This document shows, piece after piece, positions 9,934 through 60,445 of a stretch of DNA of 64,000 nucleotides. The notes under the pieces were generated by a model that was not told the origin of the DNA, ran no database searches, and saw nothing but the letters and a program-made list of their open reading frames with translations. Both the position numbers and the translations under genes were made by a program. The stretch is from a virus: IMG/VR virus record IMGVR_UViG_3300023296_001674; one strand, 5' to 3'. Every line of letters begins with the position of its first letter. Positions within the stretch are counted from its first letter, which is position 1.

Positions 9934-11284
9934 TATGACATCAAGTGAATATATTTTAGATACATCAAAAGAATATTCTATATACACTTGCCACAAGCGC
10001 GGAATCCCAAGAGTCACCGATGGGCTAAAAAATGGTCAACGGCAAGCATTATGGCTTATTAGAAACAAAACAGAAAAAATAAAAGTTATTGCACTAGCGG
10101 GTGCAATGATTGAATCTGAATTATATCTTCACGGTGATAAATCTGCCGCTGATTCGATATCAAAACTTGCTGCACCTTTTTGTAATAACGTTCCTTATCT
10201 TGTTGGAAAAGGAAACTTTGGAACACGTGTATCACCCGTTGGTGGTATTGGTGCGCCAAGATATGTTTCAGTCAAAAAAGGCCAAGCAGTCGAACGGTTG
10301 ATATATCCTGATTTGGACATAGTTCCATTAATGGATAATCACGATGGTTCAACCAAAGAGCCTGAAACGTTCCTTCCTATCATTCCCACCGTTCTATTAA
10401 ATGGGGTAGCAGGAATTGCCGTAGGTTGGTCAACTGATATCCTGCCACATAAGTTAGAAGATTTAATAAAGGCTACCAAAGCAGCACTAGAAGGCAAGAA
10501 AGTGCCTAAATTGATACCATCATATGATTATTTTGATATCACAGTCAAAAAAGTTCCAGGTGTTGAAAATTCTTGGGAGTTTACTGGAAAAGTGGAAATC
10601 ATTAGCACAAGTGTCGCACGAGTTACCGAGTTACCGCCAGATTTGACATTAGAAAATTTTAGAGCACAGTTAGCACAAATGGAAGATAATGGCGCAATTA
10701 TGGATTATACTGACAAATCCACGAAAGCAATCAATATCGAAATTAAATTCAGACGTGGTTCACTTAAAGATATGTCACCTGAACAATTAATTGATACTCT
10801 TAAATTGAAATCTCGAAAAAAAGAACGCATCGTTGTTATTGATTGGGATGGACAAGCAATTCGCACATATGATAATCCCGAACAAGTTGTGGTTGATTTT
10901 GTTGCGTGGAGATTTACAAAATATATTGAACGTTATGAAAAATTGCGAGATGTAACTAATAGTGAAATAAAATTTTGGAAGGGTGTGCAAATGTGCTATC
11001 TTGATGATCTACCAGATAGATTAACAAAAATGGCAAACAAAGCGGAAATGGACAAAGAAATTCAAGATATAACAAAATCAGTCAAATTATCTGACGCACA
11101 GATTGATCGTATTTCGAATTTTGCATCATATAGATGGACTAAAGATGGATATAAACAATGTGTTGAAAAAATACATGAATTAGAACAACAATATAAAGAA
11201 TATATTAGATTGTTAAAAAATCCTGATGATATCAAAGATATTTTCATTGAAGAAATAGATGCATTAAAAAAGGTTAAGTTCTAA
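9923..11284 (+). CDS. DNA topoisomerase II medium subunit (T4 gp52-like, GyrA-type cleavage core)
   Basis: YSIYTCHKRGIPRVTDGLKNGQRQALW matches the GyrA/gp52 N-terminal motif (AIP...DG.KPVQR). ATG 9923 was chosen because AGGAAA lies 8 nt upstream and the N-terminal length matches T4 gp52 as recalled. In-frame alternatives: 9893, 9914, 9935. Confidence 0.85.
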   Translation: MRRDMTSSEYILDTSKEYSIYTCHKRGIPRVTDGLKNGQRQALWLIRNKTEKIKVIALAGAMIESELYLHGDKSAADSISKLAAPFCNNVPYLVGKGNFGTRVSPVGGIGAPRYVSVKKGQAVERLIYPDLDIVPLMDNHDGSTKEPETFLPIIPTVLLNGVAGIAVGWSTDILPHKLEDLIKATKAALEGKKVPKLIPSYDYFDITVKKVPGVENSWEFTGKVEIISTSVARVTELPPDLTLENFRAQLAQMEDNGAIMDYTDKSTKAINIEIKFRRGSLKDMSPEQLIDTLKLKSRKKERIVVIDWDGQAIRTYDNPEQVVVDFVAWRFTKYIERYEKLRDVTNSEIKFWKGVQMCYLDDLPDRLTKMANKAEMDKEIQDITKSVKLSDAQIDRISNFASYRWTKDGYKQCVEKIHELEQQYKEYIRLLKNPDDIKDIFIEEIDALKKVKF

Positions 11285-11526
11285 TGAGCGATCCACACAA
11301 ATATATAATAACATATGGGCCATGCACGGGCAATCCATCCAATCATTTAAATTTTCAAAAAAAACATGACGGAAATAAAGTGAAAGAAATAAATGACACA
11401 CATGGATTGAATGTCAAAGTTGAATATGATATGGAATTTCATGGTAATGATCTTCATACACTTACCGTTATATACAGTTCGGATGAAGAATCAGATTTGG
11501 TTGCATTTAAATTGTTAACAATATGA
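11284..11526 (+). CDS. AFKLRW-tail family small protein (divergent tail ...DLVAFKLLTI)
   Basis: C-terminal VAFKLL motif. TAATG overlap with the upstream stop and ATGA overlap with the next gene. Confidence 0.6.
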   Translation: MSDPHKYIITYGPCTGNPSNHLNFQKKHDGNKVKEINDTHGLNVKVEYDMEFHGNDLHTLTVIYSSDEESDLVAFKLLTI

Positions 11527-11786
11527 CATTTGAAATAATAGATGCAGATGGTACCAAACCGCAATATATCGACGGCAAAGAAATATATGGATGCACACAT
11601 TATGTTGATTTTGACGGATATGTAAAAGACAAATATGATTGGATGCTTGACAATGTTGCCTTATGGTATTATGATGTTCAGCACGAGCCAATGGATAGAA
11701 ACGGTGATTGTGGCGGTGGTGAATTATTGACAATATATTTTACTACGATTGAAGACGCGATGGCGTTTAAATTAGCATGGACTTAA
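11523..11786 (+). CDS. AFKLRW-tail family small protein (...EDAMAFKLAWT)
   Basis: DWMLDN plus C-terminal DAMAFKLAW. Confidence 0.65.
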   Translation: MTFEIIDADGTKPQYIDGKEIYGCTHYVDFDGYVKDKYDWMLDNVALWYYDVQHEPMDRNGDCGGGELLTIYFTTIEDAMAFKLAWT

Positions 11787-11790
11787 CGAA

Positions 11791-12039
11791 ATGGTGTTAA
11801 AGAATATGAAAAAACAATATGAATATATGTTTTATGGCGACAATTATGATTTCGAAGATGTTCGCGAAATAGAAGAATGGTGTGTGGAAAATATTGTTGA
11901 CATTAATGATTGGTGGTTTGATGAAAAAATAACAAGACATTCTGAAGGTATTAATTATATTGGCACTCAATATGAATATGTATTTGGCTTCAAACACGAT
12001 ACAGATGCAATGGCATTTAAAATATTATGGGTTTTTTAG
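11791..12039 (+). CDS. AFKLRW-tail family small protein (...DAMAFKILWVF)
   Basis: EEWCVEN plus C-terminal DAMAFKILW. Confidence 0.65.
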   Translation: MVLKNMKKQYEYMFYGDNYDFEDVREIEEWCVENIVDINDWWFDEKITRHSEGINYIGTQYEYVFGFKHDTDAMAFKILWVF

Positions 12040-12052
12040 AGAGGAATATATC

Positions 12053-12256
12053 ATGACAACTGCTACGAAAGAAGAACAAATAATGTCTGCTTTTTATCTT
12101 GTTGGTAATAACGATACCGAACATGATATTAGAGCATGGTGGAAACAATATGGTGATTTATACGACGAAGTATTTGCCGATGAAAATAACAGAAAACGAT
12201 CCCAAGAAATAGCCGATGAGTTATGGATTGAAAAATGTCCACTTGACAAATCATAA
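12053..12256 (+). CDS. Hypothetical protein
   Basis: ATG 12053 follows a GAGAGGAA RBS. The listed 11960 start overlaps the preceding gene. Confidence 0.5.
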   Translation: MTTATKEEQIMSAFYLVGNNDTEHDIRAWWKQYGDLYDEVFADENNRKRSQEIADELWIEKCPLDKS

Positions 12257-12271
12257 ATAATGTAGTATAAT
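12243..12271 (+). promoter_or_regulatory. sigma70-type promoter candidate (full consensus)
   Basis: TTGACA (12243-12248), 17 nt, TATAAT (12266-12271). ATGTAGTAT box at 12260-12268. 31 nt before the ATG at 12302. Confidence 0.6.
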
Positions 12272-42277: not shown

Positions 42278-42463
42278 ATGACAGAAGTATTAAAATCATT
42301 ATATATACAAAGTGAAATATCGCGCATAACTAAACGCATTAAACAATATAATCAAATTTACCATTCGTTAGAAATAAAAGATTTGAATTTAAAACGATTG
42401 ATAACTAATAAACAACGAGAAATAGATATCTTAGATATGATATCAAGAGGAAACAATCAATGA
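42278..42463 (+). CDS. Hypothetical small protein
   Basis: Coupled to the next gene (ATGA overlap). Confidence 0.45.
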   Translation: MTEVLKSLYIQSEISRITKRIKQYNQIYHSLEIKDLNLKRLITNKQREIDILDMISRGNNQ

Positions 42464-42783
42464 CTGAAATAGAAACAAGAGCTACATTATTCGCCGTAAA
42501 ATCTATGTTCCCAGCAGAACACATTGAAACAGCCAATCGATTAGAATGGTGTCAAGAAAACAACATGGAATTTTTTAATGTTAGCATTCGTGGCACCAAA
42601 GTGGGTGATGTATTTTATGACGAACAAGAAATGCAAGAAATTGGCGTTCTTGAATTGCTTGATGCAGATGGTGTCAAAAAAGGCGAGATAAACCTTGAAA
42701 CATTACCACCAATCAACATCGGTATGGGATTTGTGTTTCATGATGAAACAGATGCCGCAGCATTTAAGCTGCAATGGAACTAA
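42460..42783 (+). CDS. AFKLRW-tail family small protein (...DAAAFKLQWN)
   Basis: LEWCQEN plus C-terminal DAAAFKLQW. Confidence 0.65.
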   Translation: MTEIETRATLFAVKSMFPAEHIETANRLEWCQENNMEFFNVSIRGTKVGDVFYDEQEMQEIGVLELLDADGVKKGEINLETLPPINIGMGFVFHDETDAAAFKLQWN

Positions 42784-42977
42784 TAAAAGTATCAGTTGGC
42801 AGTGATACAAATTTAGTTGATAATTCTATAATATGGTGCAAAGAAAATAATATAAACTTTGAAAAATATGAACCAATTCATAAATCTAATAAATTTGATC
42901 GTGATATAATCGTTGGTTTTATTTTTTATTTTTTAGCAGAAGAGGACGCGTTTGCATTTAAACTGCGATGGGTTTAA
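42774..42977 (+). CDS. AFKLRW-tail family small protein (...DAFAFKLRWV)
   Basis: IIWCKEN plus C-terminal AFKLRW. Its ATG is embedded in the CAATGG (Q-W) codons of the upstream tail (10-nt overlap). Confidence 0.65.
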   Translation: MELIKVSVGSDTNLVDNSIIWCKENNINFEKYEPIHKSNKFDRDIIVGFIFYFLAEEDAFAFKLRWV

Positions 42978-46066: not shown

Positions 46067-46291
46067 TTAGCCCCAGCGTAGCTTAAAAGCCATCGCTGAT
46101 TCAAGATTAAAAAATAAAACACCAGTGGAACACATGCATGCACCACTGGTGTATCCATCTAAAATAAAATCTTCTTTTACTTTTAGATTTTCAAATAACC
46201 AATTATCTATAAATTTTTCAGATATCACTGTATCATATTCAAAATATAAATCACTTGTTCTTCTTATTTTATAAAATTCTTCTACAGCCAT
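46067..46291 (-). CDS. AFKLRW-tail family small protein (...SAMAFKLRWG)
   Basis: NWLFEN plus tail. Its ATG is embedded in the AGATGG (R-W) codons of the upstream member. Confidence 0.65.
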   Translation of the reverse strand: MAVEEFYKIRRTSDLYFEYDTVISEKFIDNWLFENLKVKEDFILDGYTSGACMCSTGVLFFNLESAMAFKLRWG

Positions 46292-46488
46292 CTCATTTTG
46301 AATCCCATTGAATCTTCTTCATCTAACAACCAGACCACCGATGATGGTGGTTTTCGGACATCGGCAGAATCACATATGGCATAACTGTCTTCATCGATAT
46401 TGTCGATCAGCCATAGTTTAACTTCATCCATTTCGTTGTTGGAAATATAGAATTTTGTGTTGTTTATTTGACGTATTTTCATATCCAT
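46282..46488 (-). CDS. AFKLRW-tail family small protein (...[10 protein letters not shown])
   Basis: KLWLIDN plus tail. 10-nt overlaps on both sides. Confidence 0.65.
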
Positions 46489-46847
46489 CGTAATTTAAAT
46501 GCAACCACGTCGCTTTCATTATTGAATACAAATTTATACGTTAAATTATTTCGTTTGTCTTCAGTATAAGACCGGACGTAATATTCTTCAACGTTTTCTT
46601 TGAGCCACTCATTCATGTTATTTACCGTGACTTCATCATAGTTTTGCAACAACGCATAATATGATTGCTGTTCAACAATTTCAAATGATGGCTCCAATGA
46701 TTTAGACTGAACTGTGTGTATCGTTTCACTGCATATATCAACGCATTCATTGCAAATATATACATCTACACTAGCAATTAAATGTTTTACTTGCGATTGA
46801 TCTTTTTTACAAAATGAACATGTAGGTACTTTATTTTTTATAGCCAT
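46479..46847 (-). CDS. ClpX-type C4 zinc-finger fused to an AFKLRW-tail domain
   Basis: [34 protein letters not shown] versus E. coli ClpX [34 protein letters not shown] (recalled). C-terminal NEWLKEN...[10 protein letters not shown]. Confidence 0.75.
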
Positions 46848-47188
46848 TTTAATTTAAACGCTGTAACGTCTTCCTTGCATGTAAAGGTGAATTCAACGGT
46901 ATTAGTGCCGTTGATCGAATAATTGGTTTTGTTTTCAAATATGTATACTATATCATTATCCACGCACCAATCATCTATTAAATCAACGCCGTCTGCAATC
47001 ATGGCTGAATATACGTCATACGTTACAATAAATTTATACTTAAAAAATTTTTCTACTTGAGAATGAAAGCCAACTATATCATTTAATAACGTAATATTTG
47101 TTGGATTGTTTATTTTTTTAGTATCGACATCAAAATCTTGTAATATTTCAAATAATACTGCTTTGCGTAATGTATCTATATCATTCAT
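46838..47188 (-). CDS. AFKLRW-tail family small protein (...[10 protein letters not shown])
   Basis: DDWCVDN plus tail. Confidence 0.65.
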
Positions 47189-47207: not shown

Positions 47208-47555
47208 TTATATCCATCTTAATTTAAACGCCATCGCAGATTCTTTGTCATCATAAAACAACACTTCTATTTCTACCATTCCATTATCATCTTCGTCCCA
47301 ACCAGACCAATCCCAACGCCAATCACTAGTGCAATTTTCAAGCAACCAATCATGTTCTTCGTGATTGTTAAAATCCCATTCTTCACTAACTTTCGTTCCG
47401 TTTTTTTCACGACGTGGTGGATTTATTTTTGTCCCTGATATTTTAATATTAACTGTATTTTCGGATATGATCGATTTGTTATATGATGGCGTCGGTATAG
47501 ACGCTGTCGATACTTCTAATGTATATTTTCTACCACAATGAATATCGCCTTCCAT
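47208..47555 (-). CDS. AFKLRW-tail family small protein (...SAMAFKLRWI)
   Basis: Start moved to MEGDIHCG (47555), which has an AAAGAGA RBS and its own promoter upstream. DWLLENC plus tail. Confidence 0.6.
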   Translation of the reverse strand: MEGDIHCGRKYTLEVSTASIPTPSYNKSIISENTVNIKISGTKINPPRREKNGTKVSEEWDFNNHEEHDWLLENCTSDWRWDWSGWDEDDNGMVEIEVLFYDDKESAMAFKLRWI

Positions 47556-47591: not shown

Positions 47592-47621
47592 ATAATACCA
47601 AATATATACTGATAATGTCAA
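47592..47621 (-). promoter_or_regulatory. sigma70-type promoter candidate (minus strand) for the 5-gene family cassette
   Basis: Minus-strand TTGACA (47621-47616), 18 nt, TATTAT (47597-47592). Confidence 0.5.
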
Positions 47622-47627
47622 TATCTC

Positions 47628-47655
47628 TTGACATACATTAATGATGTGATATAGT
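47628..47655 (+). promoter_or_regulatory. sigma70-type promoter candidate (plus strand), back-to-back with the 47592 promoter
   Basis: TTGACA (47628-47633), 16 nt, TATAGT (47650-47655). 33 nt before the ATG at 47688. The two -35 boxes are 6 nt apart. Confidence 0.55.
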
Positions 47656-47687
47656 GTTCTTATAACTGATCTTGAAAGGATTTTATA

Positions 47688-49371: not shown

Positions 49372-50673
49372 ATGACACATATATCGTTATATAATAGCAT
49401 GTCGAGAGAAAAAGAAAAATTCAAACCAATAGACGATTCTCGCGTAACTATGTATTATTGCGGTATCACCCCTTATGATAAACCACATCTTGGTAACGTA
49501 AGAGCGAGTATCACTGGTGATATGATATATAGACTGTTGCGGGTTTTTTATAAATCAGAAAATGTCATATATGCTAGAAATATTACTGACATAGATGATA
49601 AAATCGAAGCAAAAAGCCAAGAAACAGGAAGGTCTGCGATTGATATAACGAATGAAACTATTCAATGGTTTCATGAAACTATGAAAGTATTACATGTATT
49701 GCCACCGGATTTGGAGCCAAGGGTTTCTGATAATGAAGAATCTATGATGGATATGATTAACATATTACTTGATAAAAATATCGCATATAAATCAAATAAT
49801 GGTGACATTTATTTTGAATTAGATAAATTTCCAGAACACGGAAAATTATGCCGCCACAGTCGCGAAGATTTAAATATAAATGAAGAACATTCTTCAGAAA
49901 AAAAACATCCACAAGATTTTGTTTTATGGAAAGAAAATCATCAACGATTTGGTTGGCATATTGAATGTTCCGCGATGATTAAAAAGCATTTGGGTGACAC
50001 TATCGATATTCATGGTGGTGGTGGTGATTTACGTTTCCCACATCATGAGAATGAAATAGCTCAAAGTGAAACTGCTAATGGTGTCCCATTGGCTAATTAC
50101 TGGATGCATAACGGTATGATTACAGTGAACGGAAAGAAAATGGCTAAATCTACTGGAAGCTTTATTACAGTCGATGAAGCACTAGATCGTGTTCCCGGCG
50201 AAGCGATACGATTTTACATGCTTAAGACGCATTACCGTAAACCGTTTGATTGGTCGTGGGATGGTTTGATGGAAGCCAAGTCTGAACTTGATGGGTTATA
50301 TAGAAAGATGCAGAAACGCACTTATGTTAAAATGGGTGGCGTGTCAGTACAAGTATTATATGCGTTGGCTGATGATTTGAATACACCATTGGTGATATCA
50401 GAATTATACAAAGAAGCGGATAAGGAAATATCTTCTTTATTGGATTCGGCGCAGCTATTGGGTATACTGAATCATACACCAGAAGAATGGTTTCATGGCA
50501 CAACGAAAGATTCATTACTTGATGCATCGTCAATCGAGGCACTTATTGAAGTACGGAAACTATTGAAAGAAAATGGCGACTATGAATCTGCGGATATAAC
50601 AAGAGATATATTATTAGGACAAGGCATTATACTTGAAGATAAACCAGATGGGACAACTTGGCGAAAAATATGA
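49372..50673 (+). CDS. cysS: Cysteinyl-tRNA synthetase
   Basis: MYYCGITPYDKPHLGNVRA (HIGH-type), GWHIECSAM, HGGGGDLRFPHHENEIAQSE, KMAKSTGS (KMSKS). Confidence 0.9.
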   Translation: MTHISLYNSMSREKEKFKPIDDSRVTMYYCGITPYDKPHLGNVRASITGDMIYRLLRVFYKSENVIYARNITDIDDKIEAKSQETGRSAIDITNETIQWFHETMKVLHVLPPDLEPRVSDNEESMMDMINILLDKNIAYKSNNGDIYFELDKFPEHGKLCRHSREDLNINEEHSSEKKHPQDFVLWKENHQRFGWHIECSAMIKKHLGDTIDIHGGGGDLRFPHHENEIAQSETANGVPLANYWMHNGMITVNGKKMAKSTGSFITVDEALDRVPGEAIRFYMLKTHYRKPFDWSWDGLMEAKSELDGLYRKMQKRTYVKMGGVSVQVLYALADDLNTPLVISELYKEADKEISSLLDSAQLLGILNHTPEEWFHGTTKDSLLDASSIEALIEVRKLLKENGDYESADITRDILLGQGIILEDKPDGTTWRKI

Positions 50674-50921
50674 TTATAACACAACAAACTAATAGTCTAG
50701 ATGAGTGTAGATATGTATGTTTGGACGACAATCAAAATCTTACAGAATTAATGGATTTACTATATTGGCTGTCTGAAAATTGTTATAGAGTGCCAGGATT
50801 GGAATGGGTGTTTAGACGATTGGATCGATATAATCAAATAATTATCACATTTGGTTTTAATTCATTAAGTGATTGTTATAATGATGAATATCATATGGCA
50901 TTCAAGTTAAAATGGTTGTAG
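50670..50921 (+). CDS. AFKLRW-tail family small protein (...YHMAFKLKWL)
   Basis: ATGA overlap with the cysS stop. LLYWLSENC plus tail. Confidence 0.65.
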   Translation: MIITQQTNSLDECRYVCLDDNQNLTELMDLLYWLSENCYRVPGLEWVFRRLDRYNQIIITFGFNSLSDCYNDEYHMAFKLKWL

Positions 50922-52080: not shown

Positions 52081-52329
52081 ATGTGTAATCCATATATAAA
52101 AATATTTGAATATATCATGGATACACAATATTCAGAGATATATAAATGGTTGCGCAATCACGGCGAAGATGGTATAGATTGGTGCATAGAAGACTACAAT
52201 CAACAATATGTAATCAATGGTATGGATAATAACGTGAGTGTGGAATGTGATATGGTTGTAAAAATATATAATATTGATGTAGCGGCAGTTTTTGAAATGG
52301 AGCAAGTTGGTGGGCATAATGGAAAATAA
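52081..52329 (+). CDS. Divergent AFKLRW-family-like small protein (tail degraded to ...VAAVFEMEQVGGHNGK)
   Basis: IYKWLRNHGEDGIDWCIEDY resembles the family N-motif. The C-terminal motif is degenerate and extended. Confidence 0.45.
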   Translation: MCNPYIKIFEYIMDTQYSEIYKWLRNHGEDGIDWCIEDYNQQYVINGMDNNVSVECDMVVKIYNIDVAAVFEMEQVGGHNGK

Positions 52330-52540
52330 AAATAGACATATATCAGAAACAGGGCGTCATATTCTTGAAACACATCCATATGTAGTTGAGAATATTGATG
52401 ACAGCGATTGTTTTGTTGATATCATATATTGGACACGGGCGGTGTTTGGTGGTAAGGAAGAACGGGTAATAACATGTTGGAATAATTATTATTTTAGACA
52501 TGAAGTCGATTGTTTTAATTTTAAAATGAGGTGGTTGTAA
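52319..52540 (+). CDS. AFKLRW-tail family small protein (...DCFNFKMRWL)
   Basis: ATG 52319 after GGTGGG. TTG 52292 is the alternative. Confidence 0.6.
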   Translation: MENKNRHISETGRHILETHPYVVENIDDSDCFVDIIYWTRAVFGGKEERVITCWNNYYFRHEVDCFNFKMRWL

Positions 52541-53133
52541 TGATTATAGGATTGACTGGTGGAATGGCATGTGGTAAATCGACATGTTCTAATATGATTA
52601 AGAAAATGGGAATTCAAGTGTTTGATGCTGATGCAGAAGCACACAAGTTGCTTGAGAGAGATGTGCGTGTTATTCGTGATATACAAGATCAACTACCACA
52701 GGCGGTGGACACAATTGATAGTAAAGAATTTATTAGTCGTGATAAATTATCGAAATTAATGCTAAATGATGATTCAGTTATTGAAATAGTCACTGAAGCA
52801 ATAACTATTCCATTAAAATATGCTTTACTCCGATTTATTGAACGCAATCGAGATAATAGATTCGCCGTTGTGGATGCGCCGATGTTATTTGAGTATAAGT
52901 GGGATACATATTGTGAAAAAATAATCACAGTTGATGCACCGAGAGATCGACAAGAATTGCGAATAATGAAAAGACATGGTATGACTGAATTAAAAATGAT
53001 GATATTACTTGATTTGCAGATGACATCAGAAGAACGAAATTTAAAATCAGATTATGTCATAGATAATGGATCGAGTTTATATAATACCAATGAACAAATA
53101 GTAAATATATTCTTGACATTGCAGCAAATATAA
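52540..53133 (+). CDS. coaE: Dephospho-CoA kinase
   Basis: MIIGLTGGMACGKST.....K..GIQVFDADAEAHKLL. ATG 52540 (TAATG overlap), or GTG 52531 embedded in the upstream AGGTGG (10-nt overlap). Confidence 0.85.
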   Translation: MIIGLTGGMACGKSTCSNMIKKMGIQVFDADAEAHKLLERDVRVIRDIQDQLPQAVDTIDSKEFISRDKLSKLMLNDDSVIEIVTEAITIPLKYALLRFIERNRDNRFAVVDAPMLFEYKWDTYCEKIITVDAPRDRQELRIMKRHGMTELKMMILLDLQMTSEERNLKSDYVIDNGSSLYNTNEQIVNIFLTLQQI

Positions 53134-53333: not shown

Positions 53334-53936
53334 ATGCAGTTTCCATTCATCAAATCAAATGTAACATTGGGGCTATTCATGAAAAATGAATATGTCAAAG
53401 TGAAATCACGATATACCAAATTATATGAACTTGCGAGACATTATTGGTTTGAATTGGTTTGTTTATCTATTTTAATGATGGTTATTATATCAAGTATGGA
53501 TAAAACATATACGCCAGTGGTTATAACACCAGTAGGTGTGGAAACAACATCAAACACTATCGCCGTTCAACCATCAAATACATACATTGATTTAAATTCA
53601 ATTGTGCGATATAAATCGACGATGATGGACAATGAAACTGTTGGTGATATAGAACGGCACGATCTTATTAATGCGCATGAAAACAAGTTTGTTGGTCAAC
53701 GTATAATTCACACTGGCAAACTTGATATAATAGATACAAAATATGATCATTATGCATTATATATATCAACCGCCAGTATATATGATGACGCGAAGTGTAA
53801 AATTGATATAGATGATAAAAAAATAATATATACACTACGCGAGGACGCAATTGTAACTATAAAAGGGTCAATTGAAGAAATCACGTTCAATTATAATATT
53901 GCAGATTGCGTTGTTGTGATGCCTGATGAAAAATAA
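53334..53936 (+). CDS. Single-pass membrane protein
   Basis: First ATG after the basic ORF. TM WFELVCLSILMMVIISSM. Confidence 0.5.
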   Translation: MQFPFIKSNVTLGLFMKNEYVKVKSRYTKLYELARHYWFELVCLSILMMVIISSMDKTYTPVVITPVGVETTSNTIAVQPSNTYIDLNSIVRYKSTMMDNETVGDIERHDLINAHENKFVGQRIIHTGKLDIIDTKYDHYALYISTASIYDDAKCKIDIDDKKIIYTLREDAIVTIKGSIEEITFNYNIADCVVVMPDEK

Positions 53937-54190
53937 TGAGTGATGAAAAATCTATATTTCATGACGTTGAAGAATCCAACACCGACGTGGGAATTGAGTA
54001 TACACTTTGGGGAAGTTATGATATAATCATCGAAGTTATGAATTGGCTACATGAACATTATCCATCGACGTGGGGAATTGAATGGACTGTCGATCATCAT
54101 AATAGACACGACGCGATAAACGTTGTATTCAATTTAAAAGAATGCAATACTGATGCAGCACTTATGGGGTTTAAATTGAGATGGTTGTAA
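53936..54190 (+). CDS. AFKLRW-tail family small protein (...ALMGFKLRWL)
   Basis: VMNWLHEHY plus tail. TAATG overlap upstream. Confidence 0.65.
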   Translation: MSDEKSIFHDVEESNTDVGIEYTLWGSYDIIIEVMNWLHEHYPSTWGIEWTVDHHNRHDAINVVFNLKECNTDAALMGFKLRWL

Positions 54191-54570
54191 AAAATTTTAT
54201 AGCATTGCCACACGATCCGTATTTTTCTAATGTAGTAATAACTAATAGAGAGCCGGATAAAATGAGAGTGTATATACAACATAAAGGAGCAACGCCGTAT
54301 AATAATCAATCACATACAACATTATCTATATTGGCTACATCTGTTTATGTAATAGAATTAAACACCATGCCAATAGCAAAATATGTTTTTATAATGTTGT
54401 ATCATTCAGATGTCATATTGATAAAAAATTTTGTTAAACAAAACAACCTTGCTTGTTCGTTTTCAACGGGAAAAATTATAAAGGATCGAAATAATAATAA
54501 AAAGACTGGTTATCTATGTTCTACTAATGATGAAACCGCCGCAATGGCTATTAAAATGATGTGGAGTTGA
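54181..54570 (+). CDS. AFKLRW-family-like protein (tail ...AAMAIKMMWS)
   Basis: Its ATG is embedded in the AGATGG of the upstream tail (10-nt overlap). Degenerate tail. Confidence 0.5.
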   Translation: MVVKNFIALPHDPYFSNVVITNREPDKMRVYIQHKGATPYNNQSHTTLSILATSVYVIELNTMPIAKYVFIMLYHSDVILIKNFVKQNNLACSFSTGKIIKDRNNNKKTGYLCSTNDETAAMAIKMMWS

Positions 54571-54573: not shown

Positions 54574-54849
54574 ATGAAAATTAACTGCGTGGAAAAAATG
54601 GATCATAAACCGGCATATGAAACTGTTGATGTTTGTAATGACGGAATACAGGTACATATAATAAAACAGTGCCCGGCAAAATATACATGTTTGTTTCCTA
54701 CTAGAAATGAGGCAATTATTTTTATTCGTGAATTGAAAAAAATACCAAGTATTGATTATCAACAGTATCATTTGGGTGATAGAAATCTATTGGAAGTTAA
54801 TATTCATTCGAAAGACGCATTATTTTTGTTTTCATTGAGATGGTTATAA
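54574..54849 (+). CDS. LRW-tail subfamily protein, tandem copy 1 (...ALFLFSLRWL)
   Basis: About 91 aa. Collinear with the next two ORFs (..HKP.....). Confidence 0.6.
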   Translation: MKINCVEKMDHKPAYETVDVCNDGIQVHIIKQCPAKYTCLFPTRNEAIIFIRELKKIPSIDYQQYHLGDRNLLEVNIHSKDALFLFSLRWL

Positions 54850-54850
54850 T

Positions 54851-55129
54851 ATGTCAATACATATAGAATGCGTAAATCGAATGATTGAACGACCTGTATT
54901 CGTAGACATCGAAACTGTTGGTGGTAGAGGTGTTATAATACAAGACCAGCATGATTCGATACCAGCAGAATTTAATATATTTTCAGATACGAATAAAGAG
55001 TTGCATAAAATAATGAATGAAATATCACGTATGCATGGTGTAACAATTACAGATACTCGTGATCTCTGGGCAACTATTAATGTTAATACAAAAGAATCAT
55101 TGCTTTTGTTTTCATTGAGGTGGCGGTAA
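54851..55129 (+). CDS. LRW-tail subfamily protein, tandem copy 2 (...SLLLFSLRWR)
   Basis: Shares IPAEFNIF / VPAEFICN and the K(E/D)(S/T/A)LL(L/I)F(S/W)LRW ending with copies 1 and 3. Confidence 0.6.
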   Translation: MSIHIECVNRMIERPVFVDIETVGGRGVIIQDQHDSIPAEFNIFSDTNKELHKIMNEISRMHGVTITDTRDLWATINVNTKESLLLFSLRWR

Positions 55130-55130
55130 T

Positions 55131-55412
55131 ATGACGGAATTGTATATACATCAAACTGTGCGGATGCACCATAAGCCATCATTTGAACAATACAACACCT
55201 TGGGTGGTGGTGGTTACATCAATTATACGAATGAGTTTGTACCAGCAGAATTTATTTGCAACGCAGATGATTCTGCAACATTACTTGCGTTTATAGACGA
55301 GTTGAGAATATTACCCGGTCTTCAAGTTGACAGAGAGCATCATCAATCTGAGATTACCGTTAAAATTCATTCAAAAGAAACATTATTAATATTTTGGTTG
55401 AGGTGGATGTGA
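55131..55412 (+). CDS. LRW-tail subfamily protein, tandem copy 3 (...TLLIFWLRWM)
   Basis: Same length class and motifs as copies 1 and 2. Confidence 0.6.
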   Translation: MTELYIHQTVRMHHKPSFEQYNTLGGGGYINYTNEFVPAEFICNADDSATLLAFIDELRILPGLQVDREHHQSEITVKIHSKETLLIFWLRWM

Positions 55413-55570
55413 TGTTATATAGATTTAAAGATATGGACGTTAAGCCGGATGAAAACATAAAAGAATGGTGCAATGAAAATTTAACAGACGGTGAAGTAGA
55501 ATTTGGTGCTACTACCATTTACATACAATCGGAGATAGATGCAATGGCGTTTGAATTAAGATGGATTTAA
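55412..55570 (+). CDS. AFKLRW-tail family small protein, 52 aa (...DAMAFELRWI), missed by the 60-aa cutoff
   Basis: TGATG overlap. IKEWCNEN plus DAMAFELRWI. An in-frame GTG at 55403 would recreate the 10-nt overlap. Confidence 0.6.
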   Translation: MLYRFKDMDVKPDENIKEWCNENLTDGEVEFGATTIYIQSEIDAMAFELRWI

Positions 55571-55572: not shown

Positions 55573-56295
55573 TTATTTATGTTTACAATTGTCATTATGC
55601 CACCTATTTAATGCTCCATAATTTCGAGTTGATAAATTGCAATGAGGGCATGTTTTATATGGCTGTGATAATTTTGCTTTAGACATTTTATTTTTAGCCG
55701 ATATTGTTTTAGGTTTTCCTTTTGCCGCATTGCTCATTTTTTGTTTAGTTGTTTCGGAGTGTGTTCTTCCGTATTTACCTGTTAATGCCGCGCTAATACA
55801 TTTTTTAGTTTCTTTGCTGAGTTTTTTACCTATATTCGCCAAAAATAATTTTTGTTTGGTTTCTGCTGTATGTTTTTTGCCTACCCCCGCTAAAGATAAT
55901 TTTTGTTTGGTTTCTTCTGATAATTTCTTACCTTTATGAGCATTGCTTATTTTTAATTTAGTTTTTTCAGTATGTTTGTATCCACTTTTACAATAAAATT
56001 TATTGTCGCCGTTGTGTTGATTTAGATAATTTGTATTATTGGCTGCGTCAATTTTTGATAAAACTTTGCTTTCCCATAATCTGGCTTTTTTTGGATTATT
56101 TGGAAATTCTTTACGTATTTCATATATAAAATTTTCTAATCCATATTTTTGTATAAGGCTTTCGATAATTGCCGATGAAGTAAAATATGTAGACCACAAA
56201 TCAGATGGGTGGCAGTTTTTAGCATATCTTACCCCATAATAATGTTGGCCCGTTTCTAAAAAAGTTATGCGATATGTATAAGGTATATGATTCAT
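55573..56295 (-). CDS. GIY-YIG homing endonuclease (Seg-like) with NUMOD3 repeats
   Basis: YTYRITFLETGQHYYGVRY (GIY-YIG). Five repeats of HTEKTKLKISNAHKGKK-type modules. C-terminal CPHC..C Zn motif. Confidence 0.85.
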   Translation of the reverse strand: MNHIPYTYRITFLETGQHYYGVRYAKNCHPSDLWSTYFTSSAIIESLIQKYGLENFIYEIRKEFPNNPKKARLWESKVLSKIDAANNTNYLNQHNGDNKFYCKSGYKHTEKTKLKISNAHKGKKLSEETKQKLSLAGVGKKHTAETKQKLFLANIGKKLSKETKKCISAALTGKYGRTHSETTKQKMSNAAKGKPKTISAKNKMSKAKLSQPYKTCPHCNLSTRNYGALNRWHNDNCKHK

Positions 56296-56425: not shown

Positions 56426-57643
56426 ATGAATGACCATCGCGAGATTGCTACAGCTTTAGACTTATTTCATTTTGAGGAGCATTCACCAGGAATGGTATAT
56501 TGGCATCCTGAAGGGTTTAAATTATATCGAACCATAGAAGAATATATGCGAAGCATGCATGAAAAATATGGATATAAAGAAATTAGAACACCAATAATGG
56601 TCAATAAATCTTTATGGAAATTGTCTGGTCATTGGGATAAATTTCAAGACAATATTTTTATTGCTGGTGAAATAGGTGAAGTAATAAGCGATGAGTTAAT
56701 TTATACTGACGGGCAATATGTAATGTCTCCGATGAATTGTCCAAATCATATACAAGTGTACCAAAAGGGAACAAAGTCTTACAAGATGCTACCTGATCGT
56801 TTATTTGAATTTGGTGTGGTGCATCGCAATGAACCATCTGGATCATTGGCTGGCATTATGAGATTGCGAAGTTTTACACAAGATGACTCGCATATACACT
56901 GTACTGAAGATCAAATTTTGAGTGAAACAACCAATTTTATCAATATGCTTCAAGAAGTTTATTCTAAGTTTGGGTTCAATGACGTCGCTGTAAAACTTGC
57001 CACTCGATGTGAAGAACGCATTGGCGACGATGCCAGTTGGGATAAAGCCGAGAAAGCATTAGAAGATGCTTGTATACATCTTGGATTGGAATACACAATT
57101 AATCCCGGTGAATCAGCATTCTATGGCCCAAAACTTGAGTTCACGCTACAAGATAGCCTTGGTCGTGATTGGCAATGTGGAACCATCCAGATTGATTTTA
57201 ACATGTGCGAACGATTGGGTGCTACATACATTGACGAAAATGGTGATAAGAAACATCCGGTATTGATTCACCATGCTGTATTGGGAAGTTTGGAACGCTG
57301 GGTTGGTGTATTGCTTGAGAACAGCAATGGTGAACTACCGTTGTGGCTTGCCCCTACACAAGTGGTTGTTGCCAGTATTACCAGTGATGTTAATGACTAT
57401 GCTGAAGAGAAAATGGTTACACTTAGTGGTATCGGATATCGAGTTGAGTTGGATGACCGAAATGAAAAAATCGGTAAGAAAATCAAAGACGCACAGAAAC
57501 GACGTATTCCATATATGCTTATTGTGGGTAAAAAGGAAAAAGAGAATCAAATGGTCAACGTTCGCAAATTGAACGGCGACCAAGATGATATGGAGTTGAT
57601 AGATTTTATAGGATCATTCGTCAAATCTACAAATGAAAGGTGA
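56426..57643 (+). CDS. thrS: Threonyl-tRNA synthetase, catalytic + anticodon-binding domains only (no TGS/editing region)
   Basis: Starts MNDHREIATALDLFHF.E.SPGMVYWHPEG, the segment that opens the ThrRS catalytic core. HRNEPSG, FTQDDSHIHC, class II motifs. C-terminal anticodon-binding domain. TGGAG RBS 8 nt before ATG 56426. Confidence 0.85.
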   Translation: MNDHREIATALDLFHFEEHSPGMVYWHPEGFKLYRTIEEYMRSMHEKYGYKEIRTPIMVNKSLWKLSGHWDKFQDNIFIAGEIGEVISDELIYTDGQYVMSPMNCPNHIQVYQKGTKSYKMLPDRLFEFGVVHRNEPSGSLAGIMRLRSFTQDDSHIHCTEDQILSETTNFINMLQEVYSKFGFNDVAVKLATRCEERIGDDASWDKAEKALEDACIHLGLEYTINPGESAFYGPKLEFTLQDSLGRDWQCGTIQIDFNMCERLGATYIDENGDKKHPVLIHHAVLGSLERWVGVLLENSNGELPLWLAPTQVVVASITSDVNDYAEEKMVTLSGIGYRVELDDRNEKIGKKIKDAQKRRIPYMLIVGKKEKENQMVNVRKLNGDQDDMELIDFIGSFVKSTNER

Positions 57644-57836
57644 ACGTGTTTTTGATAAAATGAAACTCCCATATCCATGTTACGTTAATTATGGCGTTGA
57701 CCCAGATATGGTAATCGAATGGTGTGATGAGAATATCGAGTGTAAATGGGGGTATTTTCATCAAAATAACGGAACTCTTTATATATACATTACAGATGAT
57801 GTATATGGAATTGCATATAAGTTAAAATGGTCTTGA
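57633..57836 (+). CDS. AFKLRW-tail family small protein (...YGIAYKLKWS)
   Basis: VIEWCDEN plus tail. Overlaps the thrS end by 11 nt (alternative ATG at 57660). Confidence 0.6.
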   Translation: MKGERVFDKMKLPYPCYVNYGVDPDMVIEWCDENIECKWGYFHQNNGTLYIYITDDVYGIAYKLKWS

Positions 57837-59337: not shown

Positions 59338-59344
59338 TGAATGG

Positions 59345-59373
59345 TTGACATTATGTTGATTATGATTTATACT
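59345..59373 (+). promoter_or_regulatory. sigma70-type promoter candidate
   Basis: TTGACA (59345-59350), 17 nt, TATACT (59368-59373). 29 nt before the ATG at 59402. Confidence 0.55.
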
Positions 59374-59401
59374 CCATATTGTAATAATATAGGATACAAA
59401 A

Positions 59402-59752
59402 ATGCATAAACGAAATATACTCGACGAGCCATATTTTGCCAGAGAGCCTGATTGCAGAGGCGAAGGCGATGATGGCTATATCGGATTTGGCGCAGGTAGT
59501 GATTTTAATCGTGAAATAATCGAACCTGGAATTAACGATAATTATCCTGATGGTGTTGTTGGTGTTCGCATTGATGGTGATTATTGGGTGGTTGCTATTT
59601 TGCCGTATGAAACATATAAAGACGTCTCGATGCAGGACATTATTTCAGAATATTGGCCCGAGTTTACCGACGTCGTATGTAGGCCAGATAGTGGCGATCC
59701 ATGGTGGGACGATGTATATTGGAAGAGAGATTATAAAGATGGAGAAAAATGA
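59402..59752 (+). CDS. Hypothetical protein
   Basis: TAGGA RBS. W/D/Y-rich. Confidence 0.5.
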   Translation: MHKRNILDEPYFAREPDCRGEGDDGYIGFGAGSDFNREIIEPGINDNYPDGVVGVRIDGDYWVVAILPYETYKDVSMQDIISEYWPEFTDVVCRPDSGDPWWDDVYWKRDYKDGEK

Positions 59753-59753
59753 T

Positions 59754-60173
59754 ATGAGCGACACAGATGAAATAAGAACACCAGTAGAAAATATTGATGC
59801 AATTCTTGATGTCGACAATTATTTTAATTTGCAAGAAAAAATTCACAATTATTTTGGATATGTTGAAGATTGGAAAGTGATGGCATTGGTCGATCATCGA
59901 TCTGATTATTGGATATTACACGAAATTAAAAATGATGACGGTGAAACATATGGCGGCGAAGTTTTTTATCACGATGATCCATTTATAGATGGATATAAAA
60001 CCGAAGGAAATTACTACAGCGCAGTTCTTTATATGCAACGATTTCTTCCACAGTGGATATATCGTACAAAAGATTTTACCATGATTTGTATGGACACGCA
60101 ATGCGACGATAACAAATATATTGGTATATTTTCTAATATGAATGAACAACCAAATATAGTTCCATACGTATGA
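59754..60173 (+). CDS. Hypothetical protein
   Basis: ATG 59754 lies 9 nt after GGAG. The listed 59550 start overlaps the upstream gene by 200 nt. Confidence 0.5.
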   Translation: MSDTDEIRTPVENIDAILDVDNYFNLQEKIHNYFGYVEDWKVMALVDHRSDYWILHEIKNDDGETYGGEVFYHDDPFIDGYKTEGNYYSAVLYMQRFLPQWIYRTKDFTMICMDTQCDDNKYIGIFSNMNEQPNIVPYV

Positions 60174-60445
60174 TAATACGTTATTCAGACTCTTCAAAAT
60201 TTTGGAGATATTTAACATTATTTATATTGCCAAAACATAAAGCACGTGTATATAATGCAACAGATGAGGAAATAAACGAGTTAAAAAAATGGCTGAGTGA
60301 TCAAAAAATATGGTTTTTTAGTAATAAAATAGATTACTACTCTGCTAAAAATGCGGATCATGCAAAATCATCCAAACCATTGATAACAATACATATTAGA
60401 GATGAAGAAGTATTGATGGGTATGAAATTGGCATGGGAAAATTAA
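60170..60445 (+). CDS. AFKLRW-family-like small protein (tail ...VLMGMKLAWEN)
   Basis: ELKKWLSDQKIWFF plus MGMKLAW. ATGA overlap. Confidence 0.5.
   Translation: MIIRYSDSSKFWRYLTLFILPKHKARVYNATDEEINELKKWLSDQKIWFFSNKIDYYSAKNADHAKSSKPLITIHIRDEEVLMGMKLAWEN

Follow-up and report, generated by a model that had tools for sequence, protein, structure and literature searches.

The window (the whole 64,000-nt stretch of viral DNA analyzed here) encodes about 20 copies of a ~60-residue domain that, judged from sequence comparisons, represents an undescribed protein domain family, which is so far found in phage or virus-like sequences only. The copies are a true paralogous protein family, and the conservation of their C-terminal motif, AFKLRW, acts at the peptide level. 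The codons for L-R-W are also selected at the RNA level, as a Shine-Dalgarno site or a start codon for the next gene. Taken as a whole, the best explanation of the data is probably an undescribed domain family with dual-use codons and a putative role as a binding module.

A paralogous family in the window

An earlier note on this DNA had listed 21 small ORFs that have the tail, and all of them are present (Table 1), with the minus-strand genes having been listed by their low coordinate. To control for chance, we considered ORFs of at least 50 amino acids that end with the loose pattern [FYIM][KSWE][LMI]xW plus 0–3 residues. The pattern ends 20 ORFs in the window, versus a mean of 0.08 (maximum of 1) in 50 shuffled windows. 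(One of these 20, at 27311-27475 on the minus strand, is a chance match.) With leave-one-out HMMs, 19 of the 21 members were identified at E < 0.01 in a search against the window's 985 six-frame ORFs. As a stricter test, we used an external HMM whose sole source was 607 members in unrelated metagenome contigs, and it recovered 16 members at E ≤ 3e-4. The members at 11284 and 52081 were marginal, and the triplet at 54574, 54851, and 55131 was not recovered (E > 0.6 or not listed). These three lack WxxEN and match only the final 23 columns of the family profile (hhalign probability 85%, E = 6e-6); their apparent tie to the family (54574-55412) is weak. HMM searches found no additional members elsewhere in the window. 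Overall, the HMMs and the shuffle control confirm the proposed family of about 20 paralogs, and its WxxEN motif was borne out as well.

The neighbors that had been claimed for these genes were also found: topoisomerase II subunits, CysRS, ThrRS, CoaE, two N6/N4 methyltransferases, and a GIY-YIG/NUMOD3 endonuclease. Another neighbor is an Apyc1-like metallo-beta-lactamase protein (93 bits versus a cut-off of 50). In the window, one short ORF separates phage clpA from the first family gene after it; the array of the related phage (L001/L002) is directly downstream of phage clpA and adjoins dnaJ and def. On the minus strand, an array of five members (46067-47555) lies downstream of a divergent intergenic region (47556-47687) with a sigma-70-like promoter match, which suggests early transcription by the host RNA polymerase; sigma-70-like sites are not more numerous in this region than in shuffles, and this is a match to the consensus only.

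Table 1. Family members and related features in the window. E values are from the external HMM unless otherwise stated.
Feature	Position	Strand	Evidence	Remarks
Marginal member, VAFKLLTI without terminal W	11284..11526	+	E=0.006; leave-one-out E=0.19	Between topoisomerase II subunit genes; stop overlaps ATG of next member (ATATGA)
Member, DAMAFKLAWT	11523..11786	+	E=1.3e-11; leave-one-out E=4e-8	
Member, EEWCVEN ... DAMAFKILWVF	11791..12039	+	E=1.9e-15	
Member, LEWCQEN ... DAAAFKLQWN	42460..42783	+	E=2.4e-10	Second gene after phage clpA; syntenic ortholog in L002 63% identical; CAA-TGG holds embedded ATG of next member
Member, IIWCKEN ... DAFAFKLRWV	42774..42977	+	E=3.2e-14	67 aa, essentially the bare domain; ortholog 60% identical
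Array last gene, DNWLFEN ... SAMAFKLRWG	46067..46291	-	E=9.5e-12	CTA-CGC-TGG, not Shine-Dalgarno-like; downstream coupled gene absent (junction sequence)
Member, KLWLIDN ...	46282..46488	-	E=7.7e-12	Ortholog 40% identical; AGA-TGG holds embedded ATG of next member
Member with N-terminal ClpX-type zinc finger, NEWLKEN ...	46479..46847	-	E=1.9e-18	Ortholog in L002 61% identical
ClpX C4 zinc-finger domain, residues 9-44 of 46479..46847 product	46716..46823	-	Pfam PF06689 E=1.9e-15	56.9 bits versus cut-off of 27; also NCBIfam clpX N-terminus, E=1e-11; CxxC...CxxC
Member, DDWCVDN ...	46838..47188	-	E=3e-12	AAA-TGG holds embedded ATG of next member
Array first gene, DWLLENC ... SAMAFKLRWI	47208..47555	-	E=7.6e-12	
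Sigma-70-like promoter match TTGACA-18-TATTAT, TG extended	47592..47621	-	11/12 consensus positions	
Member, YWLSENC ... HMAFKLKWL	50670..50921	+	E=8.6e-9	Start overlaps cysS stop by 4 nt (CysRS Pfam match, 49372-50673)
Degenerate member, tail lost, DWCIED ... AAVFEMEQVGGHNGK	52081..52329	+	E=0.03; broader HMM E=0.002	Syntenic ortholog 42% identical, tail likewise degraded
Member, CFNFKMRWL	52319..52540	+	E=1.3e-7	coaE ribosome-binding site inside last codons
Junction AGG-TGG-TTG-TAATG	52529..52542	+	Junction sequence	R-W codons are Shine-Dalgarno-like (GGTGG); one spacer codon; stop overlaps coaE ATG (52540)
Member, MNWLHEH ... LMGFKLRWL	53936..54190	+	E=3.2e-8	AGA-TGG holds embedded ATG of next member
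Divergent basic member, AAMAIKMMWS	54181..54570	+	E=2.8e-4	pI 9.4
Triplet subfamily copy 1, ALFLFSLRWL	54574..54849	+	E=0.94, not significant; hhalign	Shares strand 3 and helix 2 alone with family
Triplet subfamily copy 2, SLLLFSLRWR	54851..55129	+	As copy 1	Ends TTG-AGG-TGG-CGG-TAA-T-ATG, with GAGGTG upstream of next start
Triplet subfamily copy 3, TLLIFWLRWM	55131..55412	+	E=0.64; hhalign	
Canonical family junction AGG-TGG-ATG-TGATG	55401..55414	+	Junction sequence	R-W codons serve as Shine-Dalgarno site, then one spacer codon; stop overlaps ATG of 55412
Smallest member, 52 aa, KEWCNEN ... DAMAFELRWI	55412..55570	+	E=4.6e-14	Ortholog 69% identical
Member, IEWCDEN ... GIAYKLKWS	57633..57836	+	E=4.2e-10	Overlaps thrS end by 11 nt; syntenic ortholog, likewise after thrS, 55% identical
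Divergent member, KKWLSDQ ... LMGMKLAWEN	60170..60445	+	E=4.1e-5	

The family in other genomes

The earlier note could not place the family, and it does not match a characterized one: no family match was found in Pfam, NCBIfam, PHROGs, or sequences from the PDB. Among 1.84 billion proteins, its members form 488 metagenome clusters at 50% identity, and 607 members are spread across 283 kb of metagenome contigs. No relative of the canonical motif was found in 185,579 cellular genomes. The genes form tightly packed, co-directional arrays. The densest array has 30 members in 11.8 kb; such arrays are found in T4-like phages, where they adjoin T4-type gp20/gp23. The median pI of the members is 4.7, and fused or extended forms include tandem two-domain, membrane-anchored, zinc-ribbon, and ClpX zinc-finger proteins.

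Junctions between family genes

Most members (502 of 555, or 90%) stop exactly one residue past the W of the motif. The arginine before this W is encoded by AGG in 68% of cases, versus 9% elsewhere in the same genes (AGG is 4% of the arginine codons in the window), and the leucine before that is encoded by TTG in 53% of cases, versus 17% elsewhere. TTG-AGG-TGG spells GAGGTG, which is complementary to the 3' end of the 16S rRNA and lies 5–6 nt ahead of a start codon overlapping the stop codon (TGATG, TAATG, or ATGA). Alternatively, the next gene's ATG lies inside xxA-TGG. For 79% of members, the next ATG is located between -12 and +4 nt relative to the stop, and the share of AGG drops to 31% if no ORF follows. 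Junctions with R-W as the Shine-Dalgarno site and an overlapping stop occur in hundreds of metagenome members, and also in high-GC contigs, which have the equivalent layout CGG-TGG-NNN-TGATG. In the window, dual-use codons are seen at 52529-52542, at 55401-55414, and at five embedded ATGs.

Because the L-R-W codons have this dual use, each family gene bears the translation-initiation site of its follower, which would ease tandem amplification. The dual use fits the near-fixed ending of W, one residue, and stop. However, the one-residue rule is also kept without a coupled downstream gene, by six members in the window and by 105 of 112 “uncoupled” metagenome members, so Shine-Dalgarno spacing cannot be the whole reason for it. 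A free C-terminus may be needed at exactly W+1.

The earlier note had held that conservation acts on the peptide and not on the DNA. The first half of this stands: synonymous codons do vary (GCG, GCA, GCT, or GCC for Ala; TTA, TTG, CTG, or CTA for Leu; CGA, CGC, AGA, or AGG for Arg), and viral contigs with 59–63% GC retain DDAFAFKLRW with entirely different codons. The second half does not, as the family-wide bias indicates that the L-R-W codons are selected as RNA too.

Selection on the paralogs

Across 594 unique sequences, conservation is 0.97 for W, 0.79 for N, 0.91 for F, 0.87 for D, and 0.88 for A, followed by A (0.96), F (0.94), K (0.96), L (0.93), R (0.78), and W (1.00). The entropy of the remaining columns is ~4 bits, and the sheet, the loops, and the N-terminal extensions are nearly unconstrained between paralogs. 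In 245 ortholog-like pairs (45–92% identity), the median dN/dS is 0.28, and just 3% of pairs are above 1; within the motif dN/dS is 0.10, versus 0.30 for the remainder. Synonymous divergence is not reduced in the 12 motif codons (pS of 0.54 versus 0.40 elsewhere). Only one of these 245 close pairs is from the same locus, and the paralogs are ancient. Syntenic orthologs in the related phage are 40–69% identical, and at 55–69% identity they resemble the neighboring ClpA, CysRS, and ThrRS. These rates show that purifying selection maintains each paralog among related phages, and therefore diversifying selection, which had been suggested for the family, is not supported.

A family of this kind might be an arsenal in an arms race, with rapidly diversifying inhibitors of host defense as in anti-CRISPR or anti-restriction loci. 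Such a role would suit the numerous paralogs in plastic regions, the hypervariable sequence outside the two motifs, the neighboring Apyc1-like protein and DNA methyltransferases, the sigma-70-like promoter match upstream of one array, and the absence of relatives of the canonical motif from the cellular genomes that were searched. But the orthologs are under purifying selection and are as conserved as their housekeeping neighbors, the paralogs are ancient, and 20–30 or more distinct inhibitors in one genome would be unprecedented. We consider such an arsenal to be unlikely.

Predicted fold and the position of the motif

Two AlphaFold models have core pLDDT of 80–97. For 42774-42977, the pLDDT is 93.8 (56 of the 67 residues exceed 90), with strand 1 at residues 4–8, helix 1 at 12–24, strand 2 at 31–38, strand 3 at 44–53, and helix 2 at 56–66; for 46479-46847, the core pLDDT is 80–90. 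The models show a predicted core of ~55–60 residues with a compact strand-helix-strand-strand-helix fold. WCxEN is in helix 1 and DAxAFKLRW is a C-terminal amphipathic helix: F-x-x-E-E-D-A-x-A-F-K-L-R-W corresponds to the end of strand 3 and all of helix 2, and the chain ends at W+1. Helical-wheel reasoning is the basis for judging which of the conserved residues would be exposed. The motif co-varies with the W, E, and N of helix 1, and in proteins with two tandem domains it also lies inside the chain. These observations do not agree with a free, degron-like tail, which the earlier note had raised.

More specifically, the C-terminus could be a degron or an adaptor-docking tag for a Clp-type unfoldase (host ClpX/ClpA or phage ClpA), and the proteins would then take part in regulated proteolysis as substrates, decoys, or adaptors. 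One member in the window and at least seven homologs are fused to a genuine ClpX zinc-binding domain; an array follows phage clpA in L001/L002, and nearly so in the window; and the tail is hydrophobic and basic, with its W as the penultimate residue in 90% of members, also where no coupled gene follows. Yet in both models the motif is part of a well-packed helix, it is conserved jointly with the W/E/N of helix 1 and the F of strand 3, and tandem-domain proteins have it internally. Also, no Clp gene was found among the neighbors examined of the large arrays beside T4-like capsid genes, and the fixed ending is also compatible with Shine-Dalgarno-to-start spacing. A Clp tag thus seems quite improbable.

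We have still less confidence that the domain forms an ACT-like dimer that binds small molecules, to sense or sequester amino acids or signaling nucleotides. The tandem two-domain forms do hint at dimers, and several members abut aminoacyl-tRNA synthetase genes, but Pfam's ACT models give no sequence match and the fourth strand is absent. ACT domains bind their ligands at the strand1-helix1 loop, whereas in the family this loop is unconserved and conservation instead falls on helix 2 and the last part of helix 1.

That the motif is mainly an RNA or DNA feature, such as a translation-initiation or recombination cassette at junctions with the protein family as a by-product, is largely refuted: the A/T-rich stretch and then Shine-Dalgarno-like sequence of TTT-AAR-TTG-AGG-TGG-NNN-TGATG, the strong L-R-W codon bias, and the coupling of 79% of junctions speak in its favor, but the motif codons combine unreduced pS with low dN/dS, the peptide is retained under different codons in the window and in the 59–63% GC contigs, D-A-x-A-F and WCxEN (35–45 codons upstream) are outside any ribosome-binding site, AlphaFold folds the domain from the alignment (pLDDT of 94), and terminal array members such as 46067 hold LRW in codons that do not resemble a Shine-Dalgarno site.

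Proposed role

Our best guess is that the family is a protein-docking module that is expressed early. The two conserved helices would be a constant face through which members self-associate or dock to a single shared partner, and specificity would come from the variable sheet, the loops, and N-terminal additions (ClpX zinc finger, membrane anchors, zinc ribbons, or a second copy of the domain). The members would mostly be acidic cytoplasmic protein-binding modules that are made early, from sigma-70-type promoters, for host takeover. We propose this role as a whole tentatively, as a possibility with somewhat less than even chances; in its favor are the low median pI, the fused and extended forms, and the promoter match ahead of the minus-strand array. 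Nearly all of the conserved residues may be required for the folding of such a small domain, in which case there would be no constant docking face.

Among known folds, the family is similar to the ferredoxin/ACT-like sandwich in its beta-alpha-beta-beta-alpha order and differs from it in that the fourth strand is missing.

Homology and membership in the window

The earlier note proposed that the window encodes a paralogous family of about 20 small proteins with a conserved C-terminal tail, AFKLRW(L/I). All 21 of the ORFs that it named are present in the window (which is 34.7% GC), and the family is real: an external HMM, leave-one-out HMMs, and a shuffle control agree. A loose form of the tail ([FYIM][KSWE][LMI]xW followed by 0–3 residues) ends 20 window ORFs of at least 50 amino acids, whereas 50 shuffles averaged 0.08 such ORFs and never gave more than 1; among the 20, the match at 27311-27475 (minus strand) is due to chance. 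Leave-one-out HMMs supported 19 of the 21 members. We regard the external HMM, which was built from 607 members from unrelated metagenome contigs only, as the fairest test of homology. It matched 16 window ORFs at E ≤ 3e-4, with marginal scores for 11284 (E = 0.006) and 52081 (E = 0.03). (Members are named by their start coordinate or, on the minus strand, by their low coordinate.) The triplet 54574/54851/55131 was not significant with the external HMM, and its alignment to the family profile is limited to strand 3 and helix 2 of the domain (hhalign probability 85%); we treat it as a probable divergent offshoot. Profile searches found no further members elsewhere in the window.

Distribution and novelty

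A HMMER scan of 1.84 billion representatives (clusters at 50% identity) returned 488 clusters at E ≤ 1e-3, nearly all of them 55–120 amino acids long and ending in EDAMAFKLRW-x. Two proteins from this search (P0028 and P0117) were excluded as unrelated repeat proteins that matched one motif only. Across 80 metagenome loci with 283 kb in total, there were 607 members (2.1 per kb); examples of dense arrays have 30 members in 11.8 kb (L021) and 29 members in 10.3 kb (L030). On several contigs, the array lies directly 3' of T4-type gp20/gp23 genes, and some contig-accession prefixes (e.g., LAZR01) belong to marine-sediment data sets. The family is rare in IMG/VR (four loci), and two of these four loci are at 59–63% GC yet keep DDAFAFKLRW. 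The cultured phages Phosso and Atu_ph07 have a few members, which are mostly degenerate and are annotated as hypothetical; the proteins concerned include AUZ95037.1, AUZ95034.1, and AUZ95014.1 (Atu_ph07) and XYS97422.1 (Phosso). In 185,579 genomes of bacteria and archaea, no relative of the canonical motif was found. As seen here, the domain family is confined to phage or virus-like sequences. The large subunit of the window's topoisomerase II has no more than 48% identity to its counterparts in Atu_ph07 (Agrobacterium), Phosso (Sinorhizobium), and RaK2-like jumbo phages, and a 570,750-bp contig carries the same proteins as the window.

Like the earlier note, we could not place the family in any characterized family, in our case with searches of Pfam-A, NCBIfam, PHROGs v4, and PDB sequences. 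Scanning the window members and 60–89 metagenome representatives against the first three gave scattered single chance matches, none of which recurred. With profiles A1 and A3, PDB sequences matched only at E ≥ 0.16, except for a designed repeat protein (7rdr); no stretch of that match passes alone, and we treated it as compositional. With single members as queries, tblastn matched only Phosso and Atu_ph07, and 6 kb of window sequence had no megablast match among 50,697 phage records. The source databases have no informative names for the members, a literature search for "AFKLRW" found no paper, broader keywords yielded nothing of use, and the family is absent from a survey of jumbo phages (PMC7824862). 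Overall, the family is genuine and undescribed. Among uncharacterized families from big environmental phages, it is one of the larger seen here, it is absent from the libraries searched, and its compact and confidently predicted new domain can be defined as a family (for instance, in Pfam).

A small domain with an invariant C-terminal helix

AlphaFold modeled the 67-residue member 42774-42977, using an alignment of 89 sequences, with a pLDDT of 93.8. The model has a strand (residues 4–8), a helix that holds WCKEN (12–24), two more strands (31–38 and 44–53), and a second helix that holds DAFAFKLRW (56–66, with pLDDT block means of 97 and 93). The zinc-finger member 46479-46847 has a matching core (pLDDT 80–90), with its tail segment also predicted to be helical (residues 111–121). 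Because DAFAFKLRW falls in a helix in the first model and the second model has the same core, the invariant tail is predicted to be the C-terminal helix (helix 2) of a small alpha/beta domain.

Among 594 unique members, the conserved positions are W (0.97), E (0.65), and N (0.79) in helix 1; F (0.91) in strand 3; and D (0.87), A (0.88), A (0.96), F (0.94), K (0.96), L (0.93), R (0.78), and W (1.00) in helix 2. The remaining alignment columns are near maximal entropy.

The earlier note suggested that the expansion reflects a diversifying role, such as a set of host-factor or anti-defense binders. Instead, purifying selection acts on the orthologs: just 3% of pairs have a dN/dS above 1, and the ratio is 0.10 for the motif as compared to 0.30 for the rest. 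Only one of 245 pairs of close relatives (45–92% identity) lies within the same locus, and such relatives are nearly always on different contigs, so the paralogs are old and the close pairs are orthologs. A related phage (L001/L002) has syntenic orthologs of seven window members at 40–69% identity. Five of the seven are at 55–69%, which is like the identity of other proteins from the same two phages (ClpA 70%, CysRS 59%, ThrRS 72%, DnaJ 51%, and deformylase 61%), whereas paralogs within the window are only 13–39% identical to the first aligned member. As judged from these sequence comparisons, this argues for many individually maintained functions and not for an arms-race regime, which we consider unlikely.

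A second suggestion was that the tail is a free C-terminal peptide, perhaps a degron that is recognized by Clp proteins. As with ssrA-type tags and other ClpX C-terminal motifs, the conserved sequence is at the extreme C terminus, and the window's phage has a Clp-related context. However, both AlphaFold models predict a helix that is packed within the folded domain, not an exposed and disordered segment, and the segment is internal in tandem-domain proteins. Also, the family's tail does not resemble the known LAA-type endings. We view a degron or Clp-related role for the tail as distinctly improbable. A membrane-targeting amphipathic helix is opposed by the predicted packing, the acidic residues that precede it, and the existence of separate transmembrane-anchored variants.

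The fold resembles ACT domains, such as the regulatory domain of the prephenate dehydrogenase TyrA (PDB 5v0s), and this might suggest a ligand binder. However, the family is only 13% identical to it, has no match to Pfam ACT, is predicted to lack the fourth strand of the beta-alpha-beta-beta-alpha-beta fold, and is conserved in helix 2 and at the end of helix 1 instead of in the ligand loop between strand 1 and helix 1 (entropy is about 4 bits in the columns that precede helix 1). Because RRM, S6, MzrA, and polymerase palm subdomains are nearly as similar, the ACT resemblance is a shared generic fold and is no evidence of common ancestry, and an ACT-like ligand binder is very unlikely. Membership in the RRM and other nucleic-acid-binding ferredoxin-like domains, which have aromatic-basic RNP1/RNP2 motifs on the sheet and a basic surface, was also rejected: the family's sheet shows no conserved positions, Pfam RRM gave no match, and the proteins are mostly acidic (median pI of 4.7, with a negative net charge for 18 of 21 window members).

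The codons of the tail also serve the next gene

In 502 of 555 metagenome members, the stop codon comes exactly one residue after the tail W, and a typical junction reads TTT-AAR-TTG-AGG-TGG-NNN-TGA-TG. The Arg codon just before W (W-1) is AGG in 68% of members, versus 9% at other Arg positions in the same genes (a 7-fold bias), and the Leu codon at W-2 is TTG in 53%, versus 17% elsewhere. The sequence TTGAGGTGG includes GAGGTG, which is perfectly complementary to CACCUC at the 3' end of 16S rRNA. The next ATG overlaps the stop codon at offset -1 (126 cases) or +2 (126 cases), lies just past it at +3 or +4 (79 cases), or is embedded in xxA-TGG at offset -7 (81 cases). (Embedded starts were counted for ATG only, as every AGG-TGG has a GTG in the downstream frame.) Together, coupled members account for 79% of the total. 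Where no ORF follows, the AGG share falls to 31%, and high-GC contigs have the same layout with CGG-TGG-NNN-TGATG. In the window, where AGG is 4% of all Arg codons, it occurs at W-1 in three members, which are exactly those with a successor that starts 5–8 nucleotides later (see table).

These arrays are dense and translationally coupled, and the tail codons have a dual use. The claim of the earlier note that selection acts on the peptide holds; in addition, the L-R-W codons are under selection at the RNA level. A DNA repeat or mobile cassette was rejected: codons vary, synonymous divergence is not reduced in the motif (pS of 0.54 versus 0.40 elsewhere), and the codon bias is confined to L-R-W, where translational coupling explains it. 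That the motif is purely an RNA-level artefact is scarcely credible, given that the peptide is conserved. The fixed ending of W, one residue, and stop fits the spacing from a Shine-Dalgarno sequence to a start codon; because this rule also holds in uncoupled members, there may be a protein-level need for an exact C-terminal end as well.

Gene context and fusions

In the related phage, the array begins directly 3' of the phage's clpA and is contiguous and co-directional (L002 9483-11140). The window's counterpart is split and partly inverted by an insertion of about 3 kb that contains an Apyc1-like gene, small ORFs, and a methyltransferase. Comparison of the window with L002, in either direction, leaves some members without an ortholog, which indicates gain and loss. 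A sigma-70-like promoter match (11 of 12 consensus positions) faces the minus-strand array. There is no enrichment of the T4 late-promoter motif, TATAAATA, which has just one occurrence near a member.

The topoisomerase II subunit genes are separated by three members and a small ORF; because members lie between them, this gap is an insertion site for the family. The endonuclease-like gene that follows has its homolog at a different position in L002, so it is consistent with mobility. In Phosso, a family member lies directly 3' of the peptidyl-tRNA hydrolase gene (L005 20769-21421), and the domain has a weak structural match to BFVD A0A385EBZ8 (Caulobacter phage CcrBL9, 243 amino acids, annotated as peptidyl-tRNA hydrolase). 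Members also follow cysS, thrS, and a metS-like gene. Together, these positions and the match hint that ties to translation genes recur, which may be due only to shared plastic regions.

Features of the window and of its family members
Coordinates	Strand	Feature	Observation
8874-9893		Gap (about 0.8–1 kb)	No convincing ORF by simple gene call; no tRNA or Rfam families found
9893-11284		Topoisomerase II subunit gene	
near 12053		Small ORF between the topoisomerase genes	Start is probable
12302-14182		Topoisomerase II subunit gene	
14165-15295	minus	Endonuclease-like gene after topoisomerase large subunit	Weak zinc-ribbon and DUF723 matches (below Pfam cutoffs); opposite strand to neighbors; homolog in related phage 37.5% identical (L002 668-1756)
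22518-22676		Adjacent tRNA-Leu(UAA) and tRNA-Arg(UCU)	Read TTA and AGA, common codons for motif L and R in the window
34956-35798		Gap (about 0.8–1 kb)	No convincing ORF by simple gene call; no tRNA or Rfam families found
38571-42263		Proteostasis cluster: dnaJ (J domain and C-terminal domain) and def (peptide deformylase), then clpA (full-length double-AAA+ unfoldase)	ClpA has 937 bits to TIGR02639, just below cutoff of 993; cluster syntenic in related 257-kb contig
42460		First family gene after clpA, one short ORF further on	Next ATG inside (R/K/Q)-W
43044-43823		Metallo-beta-lactamase fold, anti-Pycsar Apyc1 family; within array-splitting segment	93 bits versus Pfam cutoff of 50; candidate cyclic-nucleotide-degrading counter-defense gene
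46067-47555	minus	Five inverted family members	
46282	minus	Family member	Next ATG inside (R/K/Q)-W
46479-46847	minus	Family member with ClpX zinc finger	Next ATG inside (R/K/Q)-W
46838	minus	Family member	Next ATG inside (R/K/Q)-W
51006-52060		N6/N4 DNA methyltransferase, seemingly split in two ORFs with one-base overlap	51006-51809 matches first half of Pfam methyltransferase model only; 51809-52060 holds S-adenosyl-methionine motif DPFMGSGST; could be frameshift, pseudogene, or assembly error
52319		Family member	AGG at W-1; before coaE
53936		Family member	Next ATG inside (R/K/Q)-W
54851		Family member	AGG at W-1; before 55131
55131		Family member	AGG at W-1; before 55412
55573-56295	minus	GIY-YIG and NUMOD3 endonuclease-like gene between family member and thrS	Opposite strand to neighbors
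60219-60226	minus	T4 late-promoter motif	Inside family member 60170-60445

Fusion partners of members elsewhere include membrane anchors, zinc ribbons, a further copy of the domain, and uncharacterized N-terminal regions. Scans of ten fusion proteins with long N termini against Pfam, PHROGs, and NCBIfam gave no family that recurred, and the N-terminal regions had no Pfam match. In one subfamily (L012, L025, L035, L042, L052, L054, and P0097), at least two predicted N-terminal membrane helices and a conserved linker, RDFWMAFGH, precede the domain. Because positive residues follow the last predicted membrane helix, their sequences suggest that the domain faces the cytoplasm.

The N terminus of 46479-46847 is a ClpX zinc finger (PF06689, E = 1.9e-15, 56.9 bits versus a cutoff of 27, residues 9–44), with the four Cys of the C4 motif, and the fusion is kept in at least seven homologs. 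Among the members, only this one resembles the ClpX N-terminal domain. In ClpX, the zinc finger is followed by an AAA+ module; this 122-residue protein lacks that module and has the family domain instead (residues 61–121). The ClpX zinc-binding domain forms dimers, and it binds some substrates as well as adaptors such as SspB. Member 46479-46847 might act as a decoy or an adaptor. This fusion is a lead to host manipulation by huge T4-like phages that carry ClpA, DnaJ, deformylase, and aminoacyl-tRNA synthetases.

A possible constant face

The mechanistic suggestions of the earlier note were borne out only in part: the free tail and the diversifying role were not, and a role in binding is retained in the following proposal. 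The two conserved helices would form a constant face by which members self-associate or dock to a common partner, with specificity coming from the variable parts. This seems to us possible, if somewhat short of probable; the degron, arms-race, ACT-like, and RNA-artefact explanations are less well supported.

A more specific variant, which we consider quite unlikely, is a phage-exclusive "plug-in" adaptor, in which the two-helix face would dock all of the paralogs on one hub (such as a host AAA+ unfoldase or chaperone, or the ClpA/DnaJ set of the phage itself). The hypervariable sheet, loops, and N-terminal additions would each capture a different host protein. As every gene has the next gene's ribosome-binding site or start codon at its end, the cassette could be duplicated or inserted anywhere and still be expressed, which would explain arrays of 30 or more genes. 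Such adaptors would be a bacterial-virus counterpart of the F-box and PRANC expansions of eukaryotic viruses. If the constant helical face does dock to a common hub, then the family would be a new class of modular viral adaptors.

Comparison with known systems

Translational coupling by overlapping stop and start codons, with the Shine-Dalgarno sequence inside the upstream gene, is classical in bacterial operons and phages. The family's junctions share the ATGA, TGATG, and TAATG overlaps and the Shine-Dalgarno-like sequence 5–6 nucleotides upstream within the preceding coding region. Unlike in the classical cases, the Shine-Dalgarno sequence or start codon is built from the family's most conserved residues (R-W), and at hundreds of junctions. 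This makes the family a clean natural example of dual coding, in which the most conserved residues, L-R-W, also provide the next cistron with its Shine-Dalgarno site or start codon.

Expansions of small domains are also seen in other jumbo phages. Bacillus phage G has about 35 copies of a zinc ribbon, which is a lineage-specific expansion (PMC7824862). In both cases, a very large genome holds a single tiny domain in dozens of paralogous copies, with functions that are conjectural. However, our family has a different fold, is found in many phage lineages (30 to 63% GC), forms far denser arrays (about 2 genes per kb), and has a nearly invariant helix with a second role in translating the next gene. 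The expansion of a tiny domain in a huge phage thus has precedents, and it is the scale, the helix, and the dual role that make this variant unusual and worth experimental follow-up.
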